Assembly: GCA_038232935.1 (NCBI GenBank)
Contig: JBBSMX010000003.1
Span: 6,443 to 70,442, forward strand
Origin: Rhodothermales bacterium
GTDB lineage: Bacteria; Bacteroidota; Rhodothermia; Rhodothermales; JANQRZ01
DNA: 64,000 nucleotides
Reading direction: 5' to 3'
Positions 1,233 to 57,176 of this stretch are shown piece after piece. The notes under the pieces are model-generated. The model saw nothing but the letters and a program-made list of their open reading frames with translations, made no database searches and had not been told where the DNA came from. The translations under genes and the position numbers were made by a program. Each line of letters starts with the position of its first letter. Position 1 is the stretch's first letter.

Positions 1233-1313
1233 GGCTTTTAGCTCTTGGCTGTTGGCTGTTAGCAGCCCCTCCGGCAGGAGAGCGCTAACAGCCAAGAGCT
1301 AACGGCCAACAGC
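1233..1313. repeat. Intercistronic long imperfect hairpin, same word family as 839-910
   Basis: ggcttttagctcttggctgttggctgttagc ... gctaacagccaagagctaacggccaacagc, with perfect terminal 10 bp ggctgttagc/gctaacagcc. Fills the nuoK-nuoL spacer. Confidence 0.6.
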
Positions 1314-3399: not shown

Positions 3400-3427
3400 C
3401 GCAGGCATCACCCCGTACGGGCGCAGC

Positions 3428-5038
3428 ATGCTGTGCCCCTACCTATCGCCCGACATGGATTTTCTCGCTAGCCTTTCGCACCTCGTCTCGTGGGTGATCT
3501 TCCTGCCCGCGCTCGGCGCGCTCGTCACCCTGTTCATGCCGAGCGACGGGGCCGTACGGTGGGCCGCGCTCGGCACGACGGCGCTAACATTCCTCGTCTC
3601 GCTCGGCCTGTGGTTCGGGTTCGATCCGGCGGTCTCGACGACGGAAGGGCCGCAACTCGTCGAGCAGACACTGAACTGGTTTCCCGGCGTGGACATCACG
3701 TACTACGTCGGCGTGGACGGGCTGAACCTGCTGCTGATGCTGCTGACGACGCTCCTCGGGCCGATCGTCGTGCTCTCGTCGTGGACGTACATCGGCAAGC
3801 AGGTGAAGGGCTACTTCGCGCTGCTCCTGATCCTCGAGACCGGCGTGCTCGGCGTGTTCGCCTCGTTCGACCTGTTCCTGTTCTACGTCTTCTTCGAGCT
3901 CACGCTCATCCCGATGTACTTCATCATCGGCATCTGGGGCGGCGAGAATCGGGTCTACGCGGCGGTGAAGTTCGTGCTCTACACCCTCTTCGGCTCGCTG
4001 CTCATGCTCGTCGGCGTGCTGTGGCTCGGGTTCGCGGCGGGCGACGCCGTCAACGGCGGCGTGTTCACGACGAACTGGTACAAGCTGCTGGCCTTCGCCG
4101 TCCCGCTCGGCTCGCAGTGGTGGCTGTTCGTGCTCTTCGCACTCGCCTTCGCCATCAAGGTCCCGCTCTTCCCGTTCCACACGTGGCTCCCCGACGCCCA
4201 CGTGCAGGCCCCGACGGGCGGCTCGGTCGTCCTCGCCGGCGTCCTGCTGAAGATGGGGACGTACGGCCTCGTGCGGTTCTGCCTCCCGTTCTTCCCGAAC
4301 GCCGCGCAGCAGTTCGCCGTGCCGATTGCGATCCTCGCGCTCATCGGGATCGTCTACGGCGCGCTCGTGGCGTATGCGCAGGAAGACGCGAAGAAGCTGG
4401 TCGCGTACTCGTCGGTGGCGCACCTCGGCTTCGTCGTCCTCGGCATCTTCGCCTTCACGACAGAGGCATTGCAGGGCGCGATGATTCAGATGGTCAACCA
4501 CGGGATCTCGACCGGCGCGCTCTTCCTCATCATCGGGATGCTCTACGAGCGGCGGCACACGCGGCTGATGGCGGACTTCGGCGGGATCGCCAAGTCGGTG
4601 CCGATCCTGACGTTCTTCATGGTGTTCAGCGTGCTCGCCTCCGTCGGGCTGCCGGGCCTCAACGGGTTCGTCGGGGAGTTCCTCATCCTGCTCGGGACGT
4701 ACAAGAGCACGGTGCTCGGGGCATGGTGGATCACGGCGATTGCGACGAGCGGGGTGATCTTCGCGGCGGTCTACCTGCTGACGATGCTGTACAAGACGTT
4801 TTACGGCCCGCTCACCGGCGAGGCCAACAAGACGATGGCGGACCTGAACCTCCGCGAGATCGGGCTGCTGGTGCCGCTCGTAGTCCTTATGTTCTGGCTC
4901 GGATTCGGCCCGGCCCCGTTTCTGGAGAAGAGCGAGCCCGCGGTCCGCTCGCTGCTGGAAGTGATCGAAGGGAAACGGTTGGCCGCCCTCGAATCGCCCA
5001 GCGAGACGCTCGTCGCCCTGCCGCTGGAAACGCCGTAG
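3428..5038 (+). CDS. nuoM: NADH-quinone oxidoreductase subunit M (Nqo13)
   Basis: 536 aa. FFELTLIPMYFIIGIWGG and HTWLPDAHVQAPTGGSVVLAGVLLKMGTYG are NuoM/ND4 motifs. An alternative ATG at 3455 (MDFLASL) is possible. Confidence 0.9.
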   Translation: MLCPYLSPDMDFLASLSHLVSWVIFLPALGALVTLFMPSDGAVRWAALGTTALTFLVSLGLWFGFDPAVSTTEGPQLVEQTLNWFPGVDITYYVGVDGLNLLLMLLTTLLGPIVVLSSWTYIGKQVKGYFALLLILETGVLGVFASFDLFLFYVFFELTLIPMYFIIGIWGGENRVYAAVKFVLYTLFGSLLMLVGVLWLGFAAGDAVNGGVFTTNWYKLLAFAVPLGSQWWLFVLFALAFAIKVPLFPFHTWLPDAHVQAPTGGSVVLAGVLLKMGTYGLVRFCLPFFPNAAQQFAVPIAILALIGIVYGALVAYAQEDAKKLVAYSSVAHLGFVVLGIFAFTTEALQGAMIQMVNHGISTGALFLIIGMLYERRHTRLMADFGGIAKSVPILTFFMVFSVLASVGLPGLNGFVGEFLILLGTYKSTVLGAWWITAIATSGVIFAAVYLLTMLYKTFYGPLTGEANKTMADLNLREIGLLVPLVVLMFWLGFGPAPFLEKSEPAVRSLLEVIEGKRLAALESPSETLVALPLETP

Positions 5039-5062
5039 GGGCGACCGGCCGGTCGCCCCTAC
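5035..5062. repeat. REP-like perfect palindrome gtaggggcgaccgg|ccggtcgcccctac
   Basis: 28-nt perfect palindrome read directly. The nuoM TAG stop (5036-5038) lies inside it. Same GTAGGGG...CCCCTAC architecture as 24519, 30169 and 45307. Confidence 0.75.
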
Positions 5063-13659: not shown

Positions 13660-13806
13660 AGCCATGTTTGAGATGCGTTCCATCGGCGTTGCTACCTCGT
13701 GCGCGCGAGAAGCGACGGGGGCGAATCCCCTCCGCTCCCTGCGCGTTTGTTATTTTTCGCGTCTAACCCGGAAGCGCTTCCTGCCGTCACCCTCTGCGAG
13801 TCCCCG

Positions 13807-16800
13807 ATGGAACCCACTAGCTACACCCCGAAGCAGCCCATCCGCTTCGTCACCGCCGCCAGCCTGTTCGACGGCCACGACGCCTCGATCAACATCATGC
13901 GGCGGATCCTCCAGGCGTCGGGAGCCGAGGTCATCCACCTCGGCCACGACCGCTCCGTTCTCGAAGTCGTCAAGACGGCGGTCGAGGAGGACGTGCAGGG
14001 GATCGCGATCTCGTCGTACCAGGGCGGCCACGTCGAGTACTTCAAGTACATGGTGGACCTCCTGCGCGAGCACGACTGCGCGCACATCAAGATCTTCGGC
14101 GGCGGCGGCGGCGTCATCGTGCCCGAGGAGATCGCCGAGCTCGAAGCGTACGGCGTGGCGAAGATCTTCTCGCCCGAGGACGGGATGCGGCTCGGCCTCC
14201 AGGGGATGATCGACCACATGCTCCGCGAGACCGACTTTGCGACGGTGGTCGAGCTGGACGGGGAAGAGCAGGAGTTGTTGGACAACGACGAGTCGAGCCA
14301 CGCGCCGCGCGCGCTCGCCAGGCTGCTGACGGTCGTCGAGCGGGACATGCTGGAGGAGATCCCCGACGAGGTGTATGCCGGGATGGAGGGGGACGGCGCG
14401 GCGGAGACCTACGCCGAAGCGCCCGTCATCGGGATCACCGGCACCGGCGGGGCGGGCAAGAGCACGCTCACCGACGAGCTCGTCCGCCGCTTCCTCATCG
14501 ACTTCCCCGACGTCGAGATCGCCGTCCTCTCCGTCGATCCAACGCGGCGGCGGACGGGCGGCGCGCTCCTCGGCGACCGCATCCGCATGAACGCGATCTA
14601 CGGCGAGCACGCCGACCGCGTCTACATGCGCTCGTTCGCGACGCGCCAGGCGCACCGCGCCACGAGCCAGGCCCTCCGCGACTCCATCGACGTGTGCCGC
14701 GCCGCCGGGTTCGACCTCGTCGTCGTCGAGACGGCCGGGATCGGGCAATCGGACACCGAGGTGGCCGAGCTCGTGGACGTCTCGCTCTACGTGATGACCC
14801 ACGACTTCGGTGCGCCGACGCAGCTCGAAAAGATCGGCATGCTCGACGTGGCCGACTTCGTCGCGCTCAACAAGTTCGAGCGGCGCGGCTCCGAGGACGC
14901 CCTCCGCGACATCAAGAAGCAGGTCCAGCGCAACCGCGCCGTCTTCGACCGGAGTCCCGACGCGATGCCCGTCTACCCGACGATGGCCTCGCACTTCGAC
15001 GACCCCGGCGTCTCCCGCCTCTACCTCGCCCTGCTCGACCGGCTCAACCGCGACTTCCAGTTCGACCGCACGAGCCGGACGTACGACGCCGACACGCTGC
15101 CCGCCGTGGATCCGAGCGAGCAGGCTGTTATCCCGCCCAAGCGCCAACGCTACCTCGCTGAGATCACCGATACGTGCCGCGACTACCGCAGCTACGCCGA
15201 AGCCCAGGTCGCGCTCGCCCGGAAGTGGGGGCAGGCGGCCGGCGCGCGCGCGCAAGTGGAAGACTGGCAGCCGGAGGACCGGGAGGCGCTGGAGACCCGG
15301 CTCGGCGCGATGGCCGTGTACTGGCGGGACAAGCTCGATGGGCACAGCCGCAGCATCCTCGAAAACTGGGACGCCCTCGCTGCGCAGTACCGGCAGGACG
15401 AGCTCGTCTATACCGTGCGCGGCCGGGAGATTCGGCAGCCGCTCACGCTGGAGACCCTCAGCGGGACGAAGGTGCCGCGCGTCGCACTCCCGCGCACCGA
15501 GGACCCCGGCGAGCGCCTCCGCTTCGCCCTGCTCGAAAACCTCCCCGGCTACTTCCCCTTCACCGCCGGCGTCTTCCCGCTCAAGCGCACCGGCGAGGAC
15601 CCGACGCGGATGTTCGCGGGCGAGGGGACACCGGAGCGGACGAACAAGCGGTTCCACCTCGTCAGCCTCGGCCTGCCCGCCAAGCGCCTCTCGACCGCCT
15701 TCGACAGCGTGACGCTCTACGGGCGCGACCCCGCCGAGCGGCCTGACATTTATGGCAAAGTCGGCAACGCGGGCGTCTCGATCTGCACGCTCGACGACAT
15801 GAAAAAGCTCTACTCCGGGTTCGACCTCTGCGACCCGAAGACGAGCGTCTCGATGACCATCAACGGCCCGGCTCCGACGATCCTCGCCTTCTTTATGAAC
15901 ACGGCCGTCGATCAGCAGGTCGAGTTCTTTTTGAAAGAGGAGGGGCGGTGGGAGAAGGCAGACAAGGTGATCGCCTCAACCCTCGGCAAGCGGCGGCCGG
16001 TCTACACTCCGTATGAGAGTGTGGGGTCGGAGGTTGGGAGTTCGGGGTCCTCTTCCCCAACCTCCGACCCCCAACCCGCGCCCCCCAACCTGCCCGAAGG
16101 GCACGACGGCAGCGGGCTCGGCCTCCTCGGCTGCACCGGGCAAGACCTCGTCGATTGGGGCGTGCTCGAACAGAACGAGTACGATGAGATCGCAGCGCGC
16201 GCCCTTTCGACGGTGCGCGGGACCGTGCAGGCCGACATCCTCAAAGAGGACCAGGCCCAGAACACCTGCATCTTCTCGACGGAGTTCTCGCTCCGCTGCA
16301 TGGGCGACGTGCAGCAGTACTTCATCGACCACGACGTCCGCAACTACTACTCCGTCTCGATCTCCGGCTACCACATCGCCGAGGCCGGGGCGAACCCCAT
16401 CACCCAGCTCGCGCTCACGCTCTCGAACGGCTTCACCTACGTCGAGTACTACCTCAGCCGGGGCATGGACATCGACAAGTTTGCCCCGAACCTCTCGTTC
16501 TTCTTCTCGAACGGGATGGACGCCGAATACAGCGTGCTCGGCCGCGTGGCGCGGCGGATCTGGAGCGTGGCGATGCGCGACCTCTACGGCGCGAGCGCCC
16601 GTGCTCAGAAGCTGAAGTACCACATCCAGACCTCCGGCCGCAGCCTCCACGCGCAGGAGATCGCCTTCAACGACATCCGCACGACGTTGCAGGCGCTCAT
16701 GGCGATCTACGACAACTGCAACAGCCTCCACACCAACGCCTACGACGAGGCCATCACGACGCCGACCGAAGAGAGCGTCCGCCGCGCCATGGCGATCCAA

Positions 16801-17319
16801 CTCATTATCAACCGCGAACTCGGCCTCGCCAAGAACGAGAACCCGATTCAGGGCGCGTACATCATCGACGAGTTGACGGACCTCGTGGAAGCGGCCGTGC
16901 TCGCCGAGTTCGAGCGGATCAACGACCGCGGCGGTGTGCTCGGCGCGATGGAGACGATGTACCAGCGCGGCAAAATCCAGAGCGAGTCGCTCTACTACGA
17001 AGGCAAGAAGCACACGGGCGAGCTGCCCATCGTCGGCGTCAACACGTTCACCTCGGGCGACGGGGTGATGACGGAGACGAAGACGGTCCCGCTGATGCGC
17101 TCGACGGATGAGGAGAAGCAGCGCCAGATCGCCAACCTCCGCTCCTTCCAGCAACGCAATGCGAAGCGCTCGGGTGACGCCCTCGACCGGCTCAAAGCCG
17201 TCGCCCGCGAGGGCGGCAACGTCTTCGCTGAGCTGATGGGCACGGCGAAGGCGTGTTCGCTCGGGCAGATCACCAACGCGCTCTTCGAAGTCGGTGGCCA
17301 GTACCGCCGCAACATGTAG
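13807..17319 (+). CDS. icmF: Fused isobutyryl-CoA mutase (B12-binding domain + MeaB-like GTPase + mutase domain)
   Basis: N-terminal B12 domain ([22 protein letters not shown]), P-loop [13 protein letters not shown] with NKFE, and a C-terminal methylmalonyl-CoA-mutase-like barrel ([17 protein letters not shown]..., [14 protein letters not shown]). ATG 13807 (MEPTSY). Confidence 0.9.
16023..16071. repeat. Perfect 16-bp inverted repeat embedded in frame in icmF
   Basis: ggggtcggaggttggg (16023-16038) and cccaacctccgacccc (16056-16071) are exact reverse complements. The segment encodes the low-complexity [18 protein letters not shown]. Confidence 0.8.
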
Positions 17320-17516
17320 TGTGTGTAAACGAGCGTCCGAGAAATGAGCGTGTCTCACAACAGCAGAACGGTCGCTCCCAAGAGTGAATAGGGTGGGGGG
17401 CTGAAAAGTGAGCGTAACAAAGCGCCGGAAGCGCATGCGTGCGAATGGCGTCGCATGCAGTTTGCATGAGCGCTATCATACGCCTCTTCGCTGCCCCCTC
17501 TGGACCGTTGCTATCT

Positions 17517-17993
17517 ATGAATCCTCCTCGCCGGAAATCCTCCGCTTACATCGAAGCGATCGTCCGTGAAGCCGTAGCTCGGGTGCTACGCTCGGTGCGT
17601 CTCCCGCTGCGCGAGGCCGGGTACGAAGGGCCGCGCTCGACCCTCGACCTCTCGGACATCCAGCACGACTTCCTCGCTGGCTACCTCTATGGCGCACTGC
17701 AGCGCCTGCTCGAGCTCGGCGAGCTGAACGAGGAGGAGGACATCGGCAAGGCAACGCACCGGCTCTACTGCGGTCTGTTCGGGTTCGAAGACAACGAGTA
17801 CGGCCCGTGGCACGTCTGGGTCGTCCGCGAGGGGCTCCATCACCTCCAGCGGCCCCACGTCTTCCTCGGCTACTGCACGGGCCGCAACGACGTCCTCGCC
17901 CAGCTCCGCTTCGGCGGGGCCTGCTCCGCCCTCGCCGACGCACTCCGGCACCTCGGCACCGATGGCACCGAGCCGCTTTTCGGCGTAGGCTGA
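17517..17993 (+). CDS. Hypothetical protein
   Basis: ATG 17517 (MNPPRRKSSAYIEAIV...) inside ORF 17439-17993, preceded by a ~200-nt lower-GC non-coding region. No family recognised. Confidence 0.45.
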   Translation: MNPPRRKSSAYIEAIVREAVARVLRSVRLPLREAGYEGPRSTLDLSDIQHDFLAGYLYGALQRLLELGELNEEEDIGKATHRLYCGLFGFEDNEYGPWHVWVVREGLHHLQRPHVFLGYCTGRNDVLAQLRFGGACSALADALRHLGTDGTEPLFGVG

Positions 17994-30168: not shown

Positions 30169-30199
30169 GGTAGGGGTGCCGGCTCCGGTCGCCCCTACC
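30169..30199. repeat. REP-like palindrome ggtaggggtgccggctccggtcgcccctacc (plus half-copy cccctacc at 30206-30216)
   Basis: 9-bp perfect stem tggtagggg/cccctacca. Close relative of the 5035-5062 palindrome. Confidence 0.7.
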
Positions 30200-30240
30200 A
30201 TCACTGCGCCCCTACCTTCACTCTAGAACGGACTGACACT

Positions 30241-33298: not shown

Positions 33299-33309
33299 GG
33301 CGCTCCGTG

Positions 33310-33399
33310 CCGGTTGTTAGTTTCTGGCTTTTCGTTCCTGGTTAATGAAGACGATCGAGCGCGCCCAACCAGAAACGAGAGACGAGAAACCGGAAACTG
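33310..33399. repeat. Word-repeat hairpin overlapping the DMT transporter start
   Basis: ccggttgttagtttctggcttttcgttcctggtt / loop aatgaagacgatcgagcgcgccc / aaccagaaacgagagacgagaaaccggaaactg. The ATG 33345 lies in the loop, and the right arm encodes QPETRDEKPETE. Confidence 0.55.
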
Positions 33400-34277
33400 A
33401 AGTCCCGCCTCGGGTCTGGCTCATCCTCATCGTCGGGCTCGTCTCGCTCGGGATCAGCGCGATCCTCATCCGGTTCGCCAGCTCGGCACCCGGCCTTGCC
33501 ATCGCCGTCTGGCGAACGGTGTTCGCGACCGTGCTGCTGGCACCCTTCGCGCTGCCGAAGATCGGGCCGGAGGTGCGGCGGTTCACGGGGCGGGATTGGC
33601 GGCTGATCCTCACGGCTGGCGTTTTCCTCGGGCTCCATTTCATCGTGTGGATCGAGTCGCTATACCACACGAGTGTGGCGAGCGCCACGGTGCTGGTGAC
33701 GACGAGCCCGCTGTTCATCGCCGTCCTCGGCTTTCTCGTCCTGCGCGAGCGGCTGGCGCTGCGGACCGTCGTGGCGATTGTGGTGGCGGTAGTGGGGGCG
33801 GCGCTCATCGGGCTGGGCGATGCCTCCGACGCGGCCTTTCCGAATGCGGTGCTCGGCAACGGCCTCGCGCTCACGGCATCGTTGCTGGTGGCGGTCTACC
33901 TGCTGATCGGCCGCGCTGTGCGGCAGCACACCTCGTTTCTCGCGTACCTCTTCCCGCTGTACGCGACGGCGGCGGCGACGATCCTCGCCGTTGCGCTCGT
34001 GCGCGGCACGCCGCTCGTGCAGCCGTGGCCGATCCTCGCGCTCTGTCTGGCGATGGCGGTGCTGCCCCAACTCATCGGGCACGGCTCGTTCAACTACGCC
34101 GTGAAGTACTTCCCGGCGGCCCTGCTCGGCCTGCTGTCCCTCGCGGAGCCCATCGTGTCCTCGATCCTCGCGTCCGTGCTGTTCGGCGAGGTGCCGGGGC
34201 CGCTCGCCCTTCTGGGCATGGTGGTGGTGGTGGGGTCGATCGCCGTCGTGTTCGCCCCGCGCCTGCGCCGCTCGTAG
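33345..34277 (+). CDS. DMT superfamily (EamA-like) transporter
   Basis: 10-TM profile with two EamA-like halves. Start uncertain (see hairpin overlap). Confidence 0.8.
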   Translation: MKTIERAQPETRDEKPETEVPPRVWLILIVGLVSLGISAILIRFASSAPGLAIAVWRTVFATVLLAPFALPKIGPEVRRFTGRDWRLILTAGVFLGLHFIVWIESLYHTSVASATVLVTTSPLFIAVLGFLVLRERLALRTVVAIVVAVVGAALIGLGDASDAAFPNAVLGNGLALTASLLVAVYLLIGRAVRQHTSFLAYLFPLYATAAATILAVALVRGTPLVQPWPILALCLAMAVLPQLIGHGSFNYAVKYFPAALLGLLSLAEPIVSSILASVLFGEVPGPLALLGMVVVVGSIAVVFAPRLRRS

Positions 34278-55916: not shown

Positions 55917-57176
55917 ATGAACCGCCTGCTCCACGCCGGCCTGCTGCTCCTGCTCGCCGCTCCCGCCTTCGCTCAAACGTCCGACGGCTACGTCCGCATC
56001 CCGTTTAATGTCTCGATCTGGCGCGGCATCAGCATCGGCGATGCCGTGGCGGGGGACACGAGCCGGACCGTGCTGCACCACGTCTCACTGAACCTCCCGT
56101 ACGGCCAGGCGGACCGACTGGAAGGCGTCGCCGTCGGCGTGTTCGCGACGGTGTACGAGGAGTCGGCGTACGGTGTGCAGGTGGCCGGGCTGGCGAACGT
56201 GGTAGGGGAGGAGGCCGAAGCGATTCAACTTGCCGGGCTGGCGAATGTGGTCGGTGAGCGGATGCGCGGCGTGCAGGCGGCGGGGCTCGCGAACGTCATC
56301 GGAGAGGAGGGTGGGTTCGTACAGGTGGCCGGGTTGGCGAACGTCGCCGGGGAGGGGTTCGGCGGGGTGCAATCGGCGGGTCTCACCAACATCGCCGGGG
56401 AAGACTTTCTCGGGGTGCAGGCTTCCGGACTGGCGAACATCGCGGGCGAGCGGACTGCGGGCGGGCAGTTCGCCGGGCTGGCGAACATCGCCGGGGAAGC
56501 GATGGTCGGGATCCAATCGGCGGGGCTAGCCAACATCACGGGAGAAGACCTGGTGGGTCTGCAAAGCGCGCCGTTCAACATCGTCGGCGGCACGCTGCGC
56601 GGCGTGCAGGCGGGCGTCATCAACGTGGCGGACGAGTCGGCGGGGCTGCAACTGGGTATCGTGAACGTGGCCGGTGAGCAGCGGGGAATTCCCGTTGGGC
56701 TGTACTCGCGGACGGGCGGCGTGCCGGTGCGGCTGGACGTGTGGACAGACGAGACGGCGGCGCTCCACGTCGGTGTCCGGTCCGGGAGCGTGACGGTCTC
56801 TAACTACGCAGGCATCAGCACGCGGCCCTTCGCCGACGCGGCGTTGCGGTGGGGTGTGTTCGCCGGACTGGGCGTAGAGGGCACGCTCGTGCCGCGCGTG
56901 GCGTGGGGCCTGGACGCCTTCGTCCACGGGCTGTTCGCCGAGGACTTTGGAGAGTACGGGGGCACGCTCGTCCGCCTCCGCTTCATCGCGACGCGCGTCG
57001 TCAGTCGGCGGGCCGCCGTCTTCGCCGGTCCCGCCGTGAGCCTGTTCGTCTCCGACGAGAACGATGGCGGCGATCTCGCCCCGTTCTCGCTCTACGAAGA
57101 CGCCATGGACGACGGCTTCGTCCGCATCTGGCCCGGCCTCGAAGCCGGCCTCCGCATCCGCATCACCGACGATTGA
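55917..57176 (+). CDS. Secreted repeat protein (16-aa AGLANxxGExxxGxQ repeats + C-terminal beta-rich domain)
   Basis: MNRLLHAGLLLLLAAPAFAQ signal. Eight near-identical 16-aa repeats (VAGLANVVGEEAEAIQ / LAGLANVVGERMRGVQ ...) plus about 3 degenerate ones. ATG 55917 within the long ORF 54510-57176. Confidence 0.8.
   Translation: MNRLLHAGLLLLLAAPAFAQTSDGYVRIPFNVSIWRGISIGDAVAGDTSRTVLHHVSLNLPYGQADRLEGVAVGVFATVYEESAYGVQVAGLANVVGEEAEAIQLAGLANVVGERMRGVQAAGLANVIGEEGGFVQVAGLANVAGEGFGGVQSAGLTNIAGEDFLGVQASGLANIAGERTAGGQFAGLANIAGEAMVGIQSAGLANITGEDLVGLQSAPFNIVGGTLRGVQAGVINVADESAGLQLGIVNVAGEQRGIPVGLYSRTGGVPVRLDVWTDETAALHVGVRSGSVTVSNYAGISTRPFADAALRWGVFAGLGVEGTLVPRVAWGLDAFVHGLFAEDFGEYGGTLVRLRFIATRVVSRRAAVFAGPAVSLFVSDENDGGDLAPFSLYEDAMDDGFVRIWPGLEAGLRIRITDD
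56181..56564 (+). repeat. Coding tandem repeat, 8 x 48 bp
   Basis: Period derived from the protein repeats. Antisense ORFs over the region also show periodic PGDVRQPG-type translations. Confidence 0.8.

Follow-up and report, generated by a model that had tools for sequence, protein, structure and literature searches.

The origin, spread and function of bacterial heptanucleotide repeats are still unexplained. According to the accounts of Mrazek et al. 2007 given in PMC4692102 and PMC4679880, such repeats are the most abundant class of long simple sequence repeats (SSRs) in most bacterial genomes, and polymerase slippage was proposed as their cause. The closest described system to the one reported here is that of the heptameric G-rich repeats of Xanthomonas, (GGGAATC)n, and Nostoc, GGGGAYT (Rehm et al. 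2015, PMC4692102). Each Xanthomonas genome holds ~185 (GGGANTN)n arrays and 70–75 convergent close pairs of heptameric G-rich repeats with the potential to form stem-loops or cruciforms; 89–93% of the repeats are intergenic and 7–11% intragenic, and they vary highly between related species (PMC4692102). Cyanobacterial heptanucleotide repeats are among the related cases cited there, and for TAACTGA repeats no evident mechanism of spread was reported (MacGregor 2015, PMC4679880). Here we describe a convergent heptamer array that lies in frame inside icmF, the gene of the fused isobutyryl-CoA mutase, in a 64-kb stretch of contig JBBSMX010000003.1 from a Rhodothermales bacterium. This whole stretch is called the window, and all features are given on its forward strand.

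The icmF block resembles the Xanthomonas and Nostoc repeats in its heterogeneous 7-nt unit (Tandem Repeats Finder (TRF) reports period 14, and arrays occur at periods 7 and 14) and in having a G-rich array followed by its complement on the same strand, as seen from the skews and a 16-bp stem. Arrays of this kind also occur at many loci, mostly in spacers of co-oriented genes and with a minority intragenic (in the window at 836–918, 1228–1318, 33308–33402 and 58–160), they are variable in length and sequence, and they are dense in the clade. Unlike the Xanthomonas and Nostoc repeats, the icmF copy sits in frame deep within a conserved enzyme domain, and it has been kept at the same orthologous position across a family-level clade. 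Its class uses words that are locus-specific with some recurring families, rather than one heptamer dominating the whole genome. In the literature searched, whose coverage is incomplete, we found no description of such arrays in coding sequence of Rhodothermales or Bacteroidota. The block is best read as a coding-region member of a class of heptamer arrays and hairpins abundant in the spacers of Rubricoccaceae-like Rhodothermales. We consider it probable that it is an in-frame convergent heptamer-repeat array, made and kept palindromic by DNA-level processes, whose peptide is a passenger in a disordered loop.

An earlier reading of this DNA from its letters alone, the original prediction, had reported an exact 16-bp palindrome with a 17-nt loop in frame in icmF, and both the coordinates and the complementarity were confirmed. 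The left arm (GGGGTCGGAGGTTGGG, 16023–16038) is the perfect reverse complement of the right arm (CCCAACCTCCGACCCC, 16056–16071), giving 100% complementarity over 16 bp in a hairpin of 49 nt. GGGG stands at the start of the arms and CCCC at their end. The loop between them (AGTTCGGGGTCCTCTTC, 16039–16055) contains a part, AGTTCGGGG, that is common to three related loci (L082, L083 and L085). Perfect short-loop stems of at least 16 bp number two in the window, the icmF hairpin and another at 1238–1302, compared with ~0.07 expected per window from first-order Markov shuffles. Against ordinary dinucleotide shuffles the icmF hairpin folds with a z-score of −3.4 as RNA and −3.1 as DNA. Half-wise shuffles, in which the G-rich and C-rich halves are shuffled separately to preserve the skew, leave a folding energy z of only −1.4, because G-rich and C-rich stretches pair fairly well with each other whatever their exact sequence. 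In energy terms the stability of the hairpin thus owes much to the skew, with (G−C)/length at +0.36 and −0.57 for the 5′ and 3′ halves of the block. Since minimum free energy was unexceptional against skew-preserving shuffles, we took the longest perfect stem as the statistic. A 16-bp stem was reached in none of 5000 skew-preserving shuffles, the longest being 13 bp, so base composition is not the cause of the palindrome.

The icmF coding sequence (13804–17319, within an open frame of 13699–17319) encodes 1171 aa from the ATG at 13804, followed by a stop; the database protein P0121 is the same protein with 1170 aa. The Pfam families PF02310, PF03308 and PF01642 (B12-binding, MeaB GTPase and the MM_CoA_mutase barrel) follow each other in this order, and the product matches PDB 4xc6, IcmF from Cupriavidus metallidurans, over its full length (E=0, 1390 bits). 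The hairpin corresponds to aa 740–756. The frame stays open through the block with conserved mutase sequence on either side, and the two arms are read in different frames, the left as GSEVG and the right as PTSDP. The hairpin falls within the mutase domain and not, as first described, in a linker just upstream of it. Pfam matches the mutase in two stretches, of which the listed one covers query 801–1164 at profile positions 152–511, and the alignment to 4xc6 pairs query 8–721 with chain 42–735 and query 792–1171 with chain 735–1113. Because query 721 and query 792 both align to chain residue 735, ~70 extra residues (aa 722–791, 15967–16176) without a counterpart in Cupriavidus IcmF sit at one point inside the mutase barrel domain.

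In the homolog alignment ~45–50 of the ~70 residues form a conserved insert (K-I-x...RPxYxGx-LPxGNDGLGLxLLGxTGDxVL) shared by a whole subfamily from Bacteroidota, Rhodothermales, some Gammaproteobacteria and others, in which the Cupriavidus type is not included; only ~21–25 aa are lineage-specific. Length varies solely between the motifs RPxYxPY and LPEGHDG, and this is where the palindrome falls. The hypervariable segment, S739–N762 between the conserved Y737 and L763–P764 (16018–16089), exceeds the 4-residue form of the nearest short relatives by 21 aa (63 nt, nine heptamers). An AlphaFold2 model built on an alignment of 89 sequences (mean predicted local distance difference test score, pLDDT, 71) shows aa 731–778 as coil without secondary structure, bracketed by confident helices at 716–730 and 779–784. 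Modeled pLDDT is below 50 for aa 739–761 and only 26–33 for aa 741–760. The segment encoded by the palindrome is consistent with a disordered loop at the surface of the mutase barrel, a placement that the original prediction had proposed to check on a structure or model.

The palindrome is the best-paired core of a larger block of ~63–72 nt, made of 7-nt words that are G-rich in its 5′ part and complementary to these in its 3′ part. The 5′ half (16019–16053) reads GTGTGGG GTCGGAG GTTGGGA GTTCGGG GTCCTCT in a heptamer layout with a period-7 identity of 0.61. In the 3′ half TRF detects a C-rich array of period 14 with 2.6 copies (16055–16091; CCCCAAC CTCCGAC CCCCAAC CCGCGCC CCCCAAC), which is two alternating 7-nt words and can be set out in sevens as TCCCCAA CCTCCGA CCCCCAA CCCGCGC CCCCCAA. 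A strict autocorrelation scan of the window gave arrays at the periods 7 and 14 among those that are not multiples of three. On the minus strand of 16066–16097, the template strand of icmF, the sequence itself reads GGG-CAGGTT-GGGGGG-CGC-GGG-TT-GGGGG, a canonical G-quadruplex motif.

A full-length IcmF protein search yielded relatives of 70–86% identity from Rhodothermales, the named ones including Rubrivirga, Rubricoccaceae and Salisaeta; a scan of genome contigs gave as its best match a Rhodothermales metagenome-assembled genome at 75% identity. In these relatives the commonest loop is a 14-residue form, YVPYGPxGxxxxLP. Further classes are a 10-residue form (YTPYExxxLP), intermediate forms of 18–19 residues and long forms of 28–48 residues. 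In a neighbor-joining tree the 10-residue, intermediate and long forms are limited to one clade and interleaved within it. The subclade of the window, with bootstrap values of 0.84–1.0 for its key groupings, has long forms in P0121 (the window), P0122, P0123, P0124 and P0129 and short forms in P0125–P0128 and P0130, which lack the block entirely and have an intact IcmF. This patchy distribution, together with words and flanks common to the long forms, fits repeated loss. The alignment with orthologs, proposed earlier as a check, places the palindrome in a lineage-specific segment that is missing or different in other members of the family. Peptides differ even between orthologous copies, and those of the long forms are unrelated to each other (for example ESSGSEVVGPGASAPHLEPQTSNLQ, EGSRVEVESSGPQVRAPNPEPQTLN and EAEGTGYEARGTGEGVPSTEYPVPD). 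All of them are first G/S/E/V-rich and then P/T/N/Q-rich. The short form is most commonly exceeded by 21 aa (63 nt, nine words), as in the window, L082, L085, P0143, P0159, P0160 and P0196; this difference is divisible by 21 nt, the smallest length at which whole words keep the frame.

A simple inverted duplication was considered as the source of the palindrome, suggested by the alignment of L001/P0001, in which the left arm falls on pre-existing G-x-E-x-G codons followed by a 51-nt insertion. It was dropped because the nearest relatives from the full-length search carry either the 4-residue form or homologous long forms.

We compared the DNA of ten long-form loops (the window, L082–L085, L088–L091 and L093) and two short forms (L086 and L087). 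In all ten long-form loops the 5′ half is rich in G and the 3′ half in C, and the layout in heptamer words can be seen in every lineage. The words of L088 are GAGTTCG GAGTTGG GAGTTCA GGGTTCA ... GAACCCC GAACCCC GAACTCC GAACCCC GAACTCC, those of L089 are GGTACGG GGTACGA GGCCCGG GGTACGG ... TGTACCG AGTACCG AGTACCC CGTACCC, and L090 has a run of eight CAACYCG words. Hairpin folding beats whole-sequence mononucleotide shuffles in seven of ten long forms (z −2.9 to −5.3), and five of the ten (L083, L085, L088, L089 and L093) are also significant against skew-preserving shuffles, with z from −3.0 to −5.8. No significant pairing was found in L084, L090 and L091. The inserts of the near clade have flanks and pieces in common (AGTTCGGGG; CCTCCAAC-TGCCC) and are for that reason homologous. 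The register and position of the best stem vary between lineages. Between L082 and L083 matching 3-nt deletions and substitutions have occurred on both arms. When the left arm was scored against the reverse complement of the right arm in nine lineages, the mean local score was 13.0 for a lineage's own arm vs 9.3 for those of others (permutation p=0.0002), and therefore the arms evolve in concert.

These observations would be accounted for as follows. Tandem 7-nt words, GTNNGGG-like on the 5′ side and their CCRACCY-like reverse complements on the 3′ side, would gain and lose units of 7 or 14 nt through slippage. One arm would be copied onto the other, by template switching or quasipalindrome correction, so as to keep or periodically restore complementarity, and the present perfect 16-bp stem may be the product of such inter-arm copying. 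Quasipalindrome correction and template-switch mutagenesis, which have been studied in E. coli, are a mutational mechanism and not an element family; if active at this site, they would explain both the perfect arms in one step and the matched changes on the two arms of L082 and L083. The block would be deleted frequently, and within the gene only net length changes divisible by three would survive. The ribosome would read through the block and produce a low-complexity passenger peptide, G/S/E/V-rich and then P/T/S/D/Q-rich, which is presumably neutral for the enzyme.

Several points weigh against this interpretation. The word families at the same site differ sharply, being GGGGTTC-type, GGTACGG-type (L089) or GGCGGGG-type (L091), which is poorly explained by slippage and point mutation and could indicate re-seeding or copying from another place. 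Every independent short form is exactly four residues long at this point, a uniformity that calls for either a precise mechanism of excision or selection acting on the length of the loop. Selection for base pairing would equally lead to co-variation of the arms. Slippage and inter-arm copying are read from patterns among intermediates no closer than 86% protein identity, and the search for further copies covered 64 kb of the source genome (the window), ~1.3–1.45 Mb of fetched loci and the JGI metagenome contigs.

The same architecture had been noted for intergenic word hairpins of the window, and two of them bear this out with 7-nt words and their reverse complements. In the nuoJ-nuoK spacer (836–918, DNA fold z −4.1) GYTNTTG words are followed by three copies of GCCAAGA, and the nuoK-nuoL spacer (1228–1318, DNA fold z −5.7) contains the window's other perfect 16-bp stem at 1238–1253/1287–1302. 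Both hairpins, whose gene neighbors were identified by Pfam, use GCTNTTR-type words and complements; the nuoJ-nuoK hairpin is built as in icmF with different words. Convergent arrays with weaker pairing lie at 33308–33402 (GTTTCTN words, then AACGAGA/AACCGGA words; z −0.7) and at 58–160, where heptamer-like G-rich words (AAGGGTA/AAGGGCG) precede C-rich ones (TACCCTT/CACCCTG) in a weak hairpin (z −1.9). Relatives have like hairpins in the rplW-rplB spacer (L082 21635–21689, GACGAAC words) and in the ftsX-rpiA spacer (L087 2237–2307). Overall, the density of period-7 arrays is 10.6 per 100 kb for the Rubricoccaceae-like clade (245 kb) vs 2.0 per 100 kb elsewhere (1.22 Mb of loci), a roughly fivefold difference, and those in other loci are mostly in Bacteroidota. 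Other non-codon periods reach at most 2.9 per 100 kb.

More distant Rubricoccaceae-like lineages have a second in-frame pair of convergent heptamer arrays, located in the linker between the B12-binding and GTPase domains of IcmF (L088 2439–2474 and 2593–2629; L089 10430–10461 and 10583–10622; L090 1088–1136; L091 10597–10633; L093 10570–10608; L006 8664–8707). A G-rich array such as (GGGGATG)x4 stands upstream of a conserved segment of ~40 aa (..ARALTAVEQR..) and a C-rich array such as CGCCCCC CAACCCC CGACCCC CAACACC downstream of it, so placed that they are able to pair across ~120–135 nt. This pair is missing in the window's own clade. Heptamer arrays are also associated with icmF in Chitinophagaceae (L061 1544–1589; L067 6459–6491; L038 115–234). 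An in-frame C-rich heptamer array lies just 5′ of the P-loop, which in L061 consists of CCAAACT-type words encoding QPTPNSKLQTPNSN. A Chitinophaga locus shows a (GAATTAC)5...(GTAATTC)5 hairpin directly 5′ of the icmF start codon.

The heptamer words are specific to their loci (GCTNTTR, AACGAGA, CCCCAAC/CTCCGAC, GACGAAC, GGTACGG) and only some families recur. With blastn-short, the C-rich array of the L089 linker is identical at 20 of 21 positions to window 16055–16075 and is read in another frame. L090 has GCAACCC words in both linker and loop of IcmF, with a 100% match over 20 nt. The (GGGGATG)n of the L088 linker (2439–2474) recurs at L093 22903–22935 with 27 of 29 matches, and an arm of the nuoK-nuoL hairpin (window 1238–1262) shares 24 of 25 positions with an array of L082 that lies between rpsG and fusA (15462–15486). 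Window 33367–33399 and L087 2279–2322 share 17 of 18 positions; since tblastx of window 33308–33402 against the ftsX-rpiA hairpin locus of L087 gave no match, these GTTTCT/AGAAAC words stand at non-orthologous loci. Recurrence of word families at non-orthologous loci hints at spreading or at convergent origin from favored words. The matches between sites, those of the C-rich arrays especially, could partly be convergence under strong compositional bias.

Such recurrence leaves room for a copying or spreading process. In Rhodothermales and Bacteroidota, convergent heptamer hairpins may be seeded, copied and homogenized by an as yet undescribed process at the DNA level, both in operon spacers and in disordered coding loops that tolerate multiples of 21 nt. 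For such a process speak the presence of heptamer arrays in coding loops at two separate sites of IcmF and the replacement of the word family at a fixed site by words that sometimes occur in other arrays of the same genome, as in L090. We regard such a process as unlikely. If true, it would be a new, templated way for repeats to disperse without a transposase, or else the hairpins would be a structural 'punctuation' that serves a function at the RNA or DNA level.

The stem-loop may instead be a selected structure, with the peptide as by-product: an mRNA hairpin that pauses translation or stabilizes or processes the transcript between the barrel halves, or a DNA cruciform or G-quadruplex. Hairpin potential does persist at the same site in lineages without a common peptide and often with little common sequence, and the arms co-vary within lineages. 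The minus strand of 16066–16097 contains the canonical G-quadruplex motif given above, and the heptamer repeats of Xanthomonas and Nostoc form G-quadruplexes in vitro (PMC4692102). Yet many close relatives live with an intact IcmF and no block, three of ten long forms show no significant pairing, and the best stem changes its register and position by lineage. Because folding is better on the minus than on the sense strand in seven of the nine loops compared, there is no G-U signature of selection on the sense mRNA. A search of Rfam at permissive thresholds gave no family match and only sub-threshold matches to GC-rich microRNA hairpin models, which we take as generic. Taken together, selection for structure appears an improbable cause of the block.

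The original prediction had favored a palindromic selfish element like those of Rickettsia. We consider it quite improbable that a discrete non-autonomous mobile palindromic element, of the Rickettsia palindromic element (RPE), miniature inverted-repeat transposable element (MITE) or repetitive extragenic palindromic (REP) kind, transposed into icmF and was tolerated in frame in a surface loop. RPEs are ~150 bp long and are grouped in defined sequence families, present in tens of copies per genome; each encodes a conserved peptide (PMC10969869). The icmF hairpin is like them in being palindromic DNA in frame in a housekeeping protein, at a position that is compatible with the fold and, in the model, tolerant (coil, pLDDT 26–33), and in that likeness between copies exists at the DNA level; an in-frame hairpin in an unstructured loop of a conserved enzyme also agrees with the description of RPEs (PMC10969869). 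The size and the conserved peptide expected of an RPE are lacking, and no exact second copy was found in the window, the fetched loci or the JGI metagenome contigs. The hairpin has 49 nt of 7-nt words in a block of ~63–72 nt, the peptides of orthologous copies are wholly different, and the frame of the L089 array is another one. What RPEs and the icmF hairpin have in common is solely an outcome that is in frame and compatible with the fold, and membership in the RPE family is not supported. The interpretation given in the original prediction is supported in part.

Further copies of the arms, for which the original prediction had proposed a search, did not appear. No second copy of the exact hairpin or arm was found in the 64-kb window, where the count at ≤3 mismatches was at chance level, and none of the exact hairpin or of the near-clade inserts in ~1.3 Mb of fetched loci. 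The full hairpin pattern had no match in JGI metagenome contigs, and a pattern for further long-form IcmF loci there returned one contig, L092, which is unrelated. What relatives do have elsewhere are related word arrays, at non-orthologous places and in other frames (L089, L090, L088/L093 and window/L082), and these would suit a mobile element, although composition could partly account for the C-rich match between sites. The block is also polymorphic in presence among relatives of 82–86% identity, and the empty sites are equal in length; MITEs are characterized by terminal inverted repeats, a flanking target-site duplication and empty sites in relatives. However, comparison with the empty sites of L086 and L087 revealed no conserved or defined ends and no direct or otherwise recognizable target-site duplication, and the block is one hairpin of 7-nt words. 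The inserts at the orthologous site share flanks and words and are therefore descended from one another, not repeatedly inserted; the block stays at this one site and turns over there.

REP palindromes pose a similar comparison, together with bacterial interspersed mosaic elements (BIMEs) and REP doublets forming hairpins (REPINs). REP/BIME and REPIN palindromes are mobilized by REP-associated tyrosine transposases (RAYTs). REP/REPIN sequences have a GTAG or CGTC tetranucleotide at one end, are extragenic and reach high copy number (PMC3733652). The icmF hairpin is a short GC-rich hairpin of similar size, with sister heptamer hairpins in operon spacers. It differs in having no GTAG/CGTC head and a 7-nt periodicity, in being intragenic, and in being a single copy in the data searched, with no high-copy family of identical sequences seen.

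That the segment is a selected flexible linker, Gly/Ser-rich and then Pro-rich, whose palindrome is a coincidence of codon choice, is very improbable: flexible linkers typically have such a low-complexity composition of G/S and P/T/Q, GGN and CCN codons are complementary by nature at high GC and the energy z is only −1.4 against skew-preserving shuffles, but no such shuffle gave a 16-bp stem, the periodicity is 7/14 nt rather than 3 or 6, the arms are in different frames and the L089 array in yet another, the peptides are unconserved, and many orthologs make do with four residues.

The icmF locus amounts to a natural experiment: one orthologous site, constrained in frame and set in a highly conserved enzyme, can be traced across dozens of lineages in which the heptamer-word hairpin has variously been kept, reshaped, re-worded or lost. 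Forces at the DNA level (7-nt units, co-varying arms, the same words in different frames) can here be told apart from selection at the protein level. The locus illustrates that selfish or mutational DNA structures can create new protein segments, here predicted to be disordered, and offers a concrete target for the effects of such hairpins on transcription, translation and genome stability.

The window also contains palindromes of another kind. GTAG-headed palindromes, GTAGGGGCG...CGCCCCTAC, lie at 3415–3442 and 5035–5062 and also at 30190–30215, 38225 and 45324. Two are located 3′ of nuoL, one of them directly after its stop codon. Their 9-mer occurs 37 times at ≤1 mismatch vs 24.7 expected. 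These palindromes may form a family that resembles REPs and is separate from the heptamer hairpins.

Heptamer arrays of other arrangements were seen in relatives. In L089 a direct array, CCGACTC CCAACTC CCGACTC (17831–17851), adjoins the ATG of a DUF937 gene, recalling the start-codon-proximal TAACTGA repeats of Beggiatoaceae. In L093 one intergenic gap of ~600 nt contains both (GGGCCGT)n (16175–16220) and (CCCAGAG)x5 (16685–16737), which are mutually non-complementary. Directly 3′ of icmF, three related loci encode a Uma2-family protein (PF05685; L082 13525–14248, L083 13565–14161, L090 4073–4648); the window's open reading frame at the corresponding place (17439–17993) has no Pfam match. Finally, at 56267–56549 the window has a 144-nt tandem repeat in two copies with 73% matches and an internal 48-nt period.

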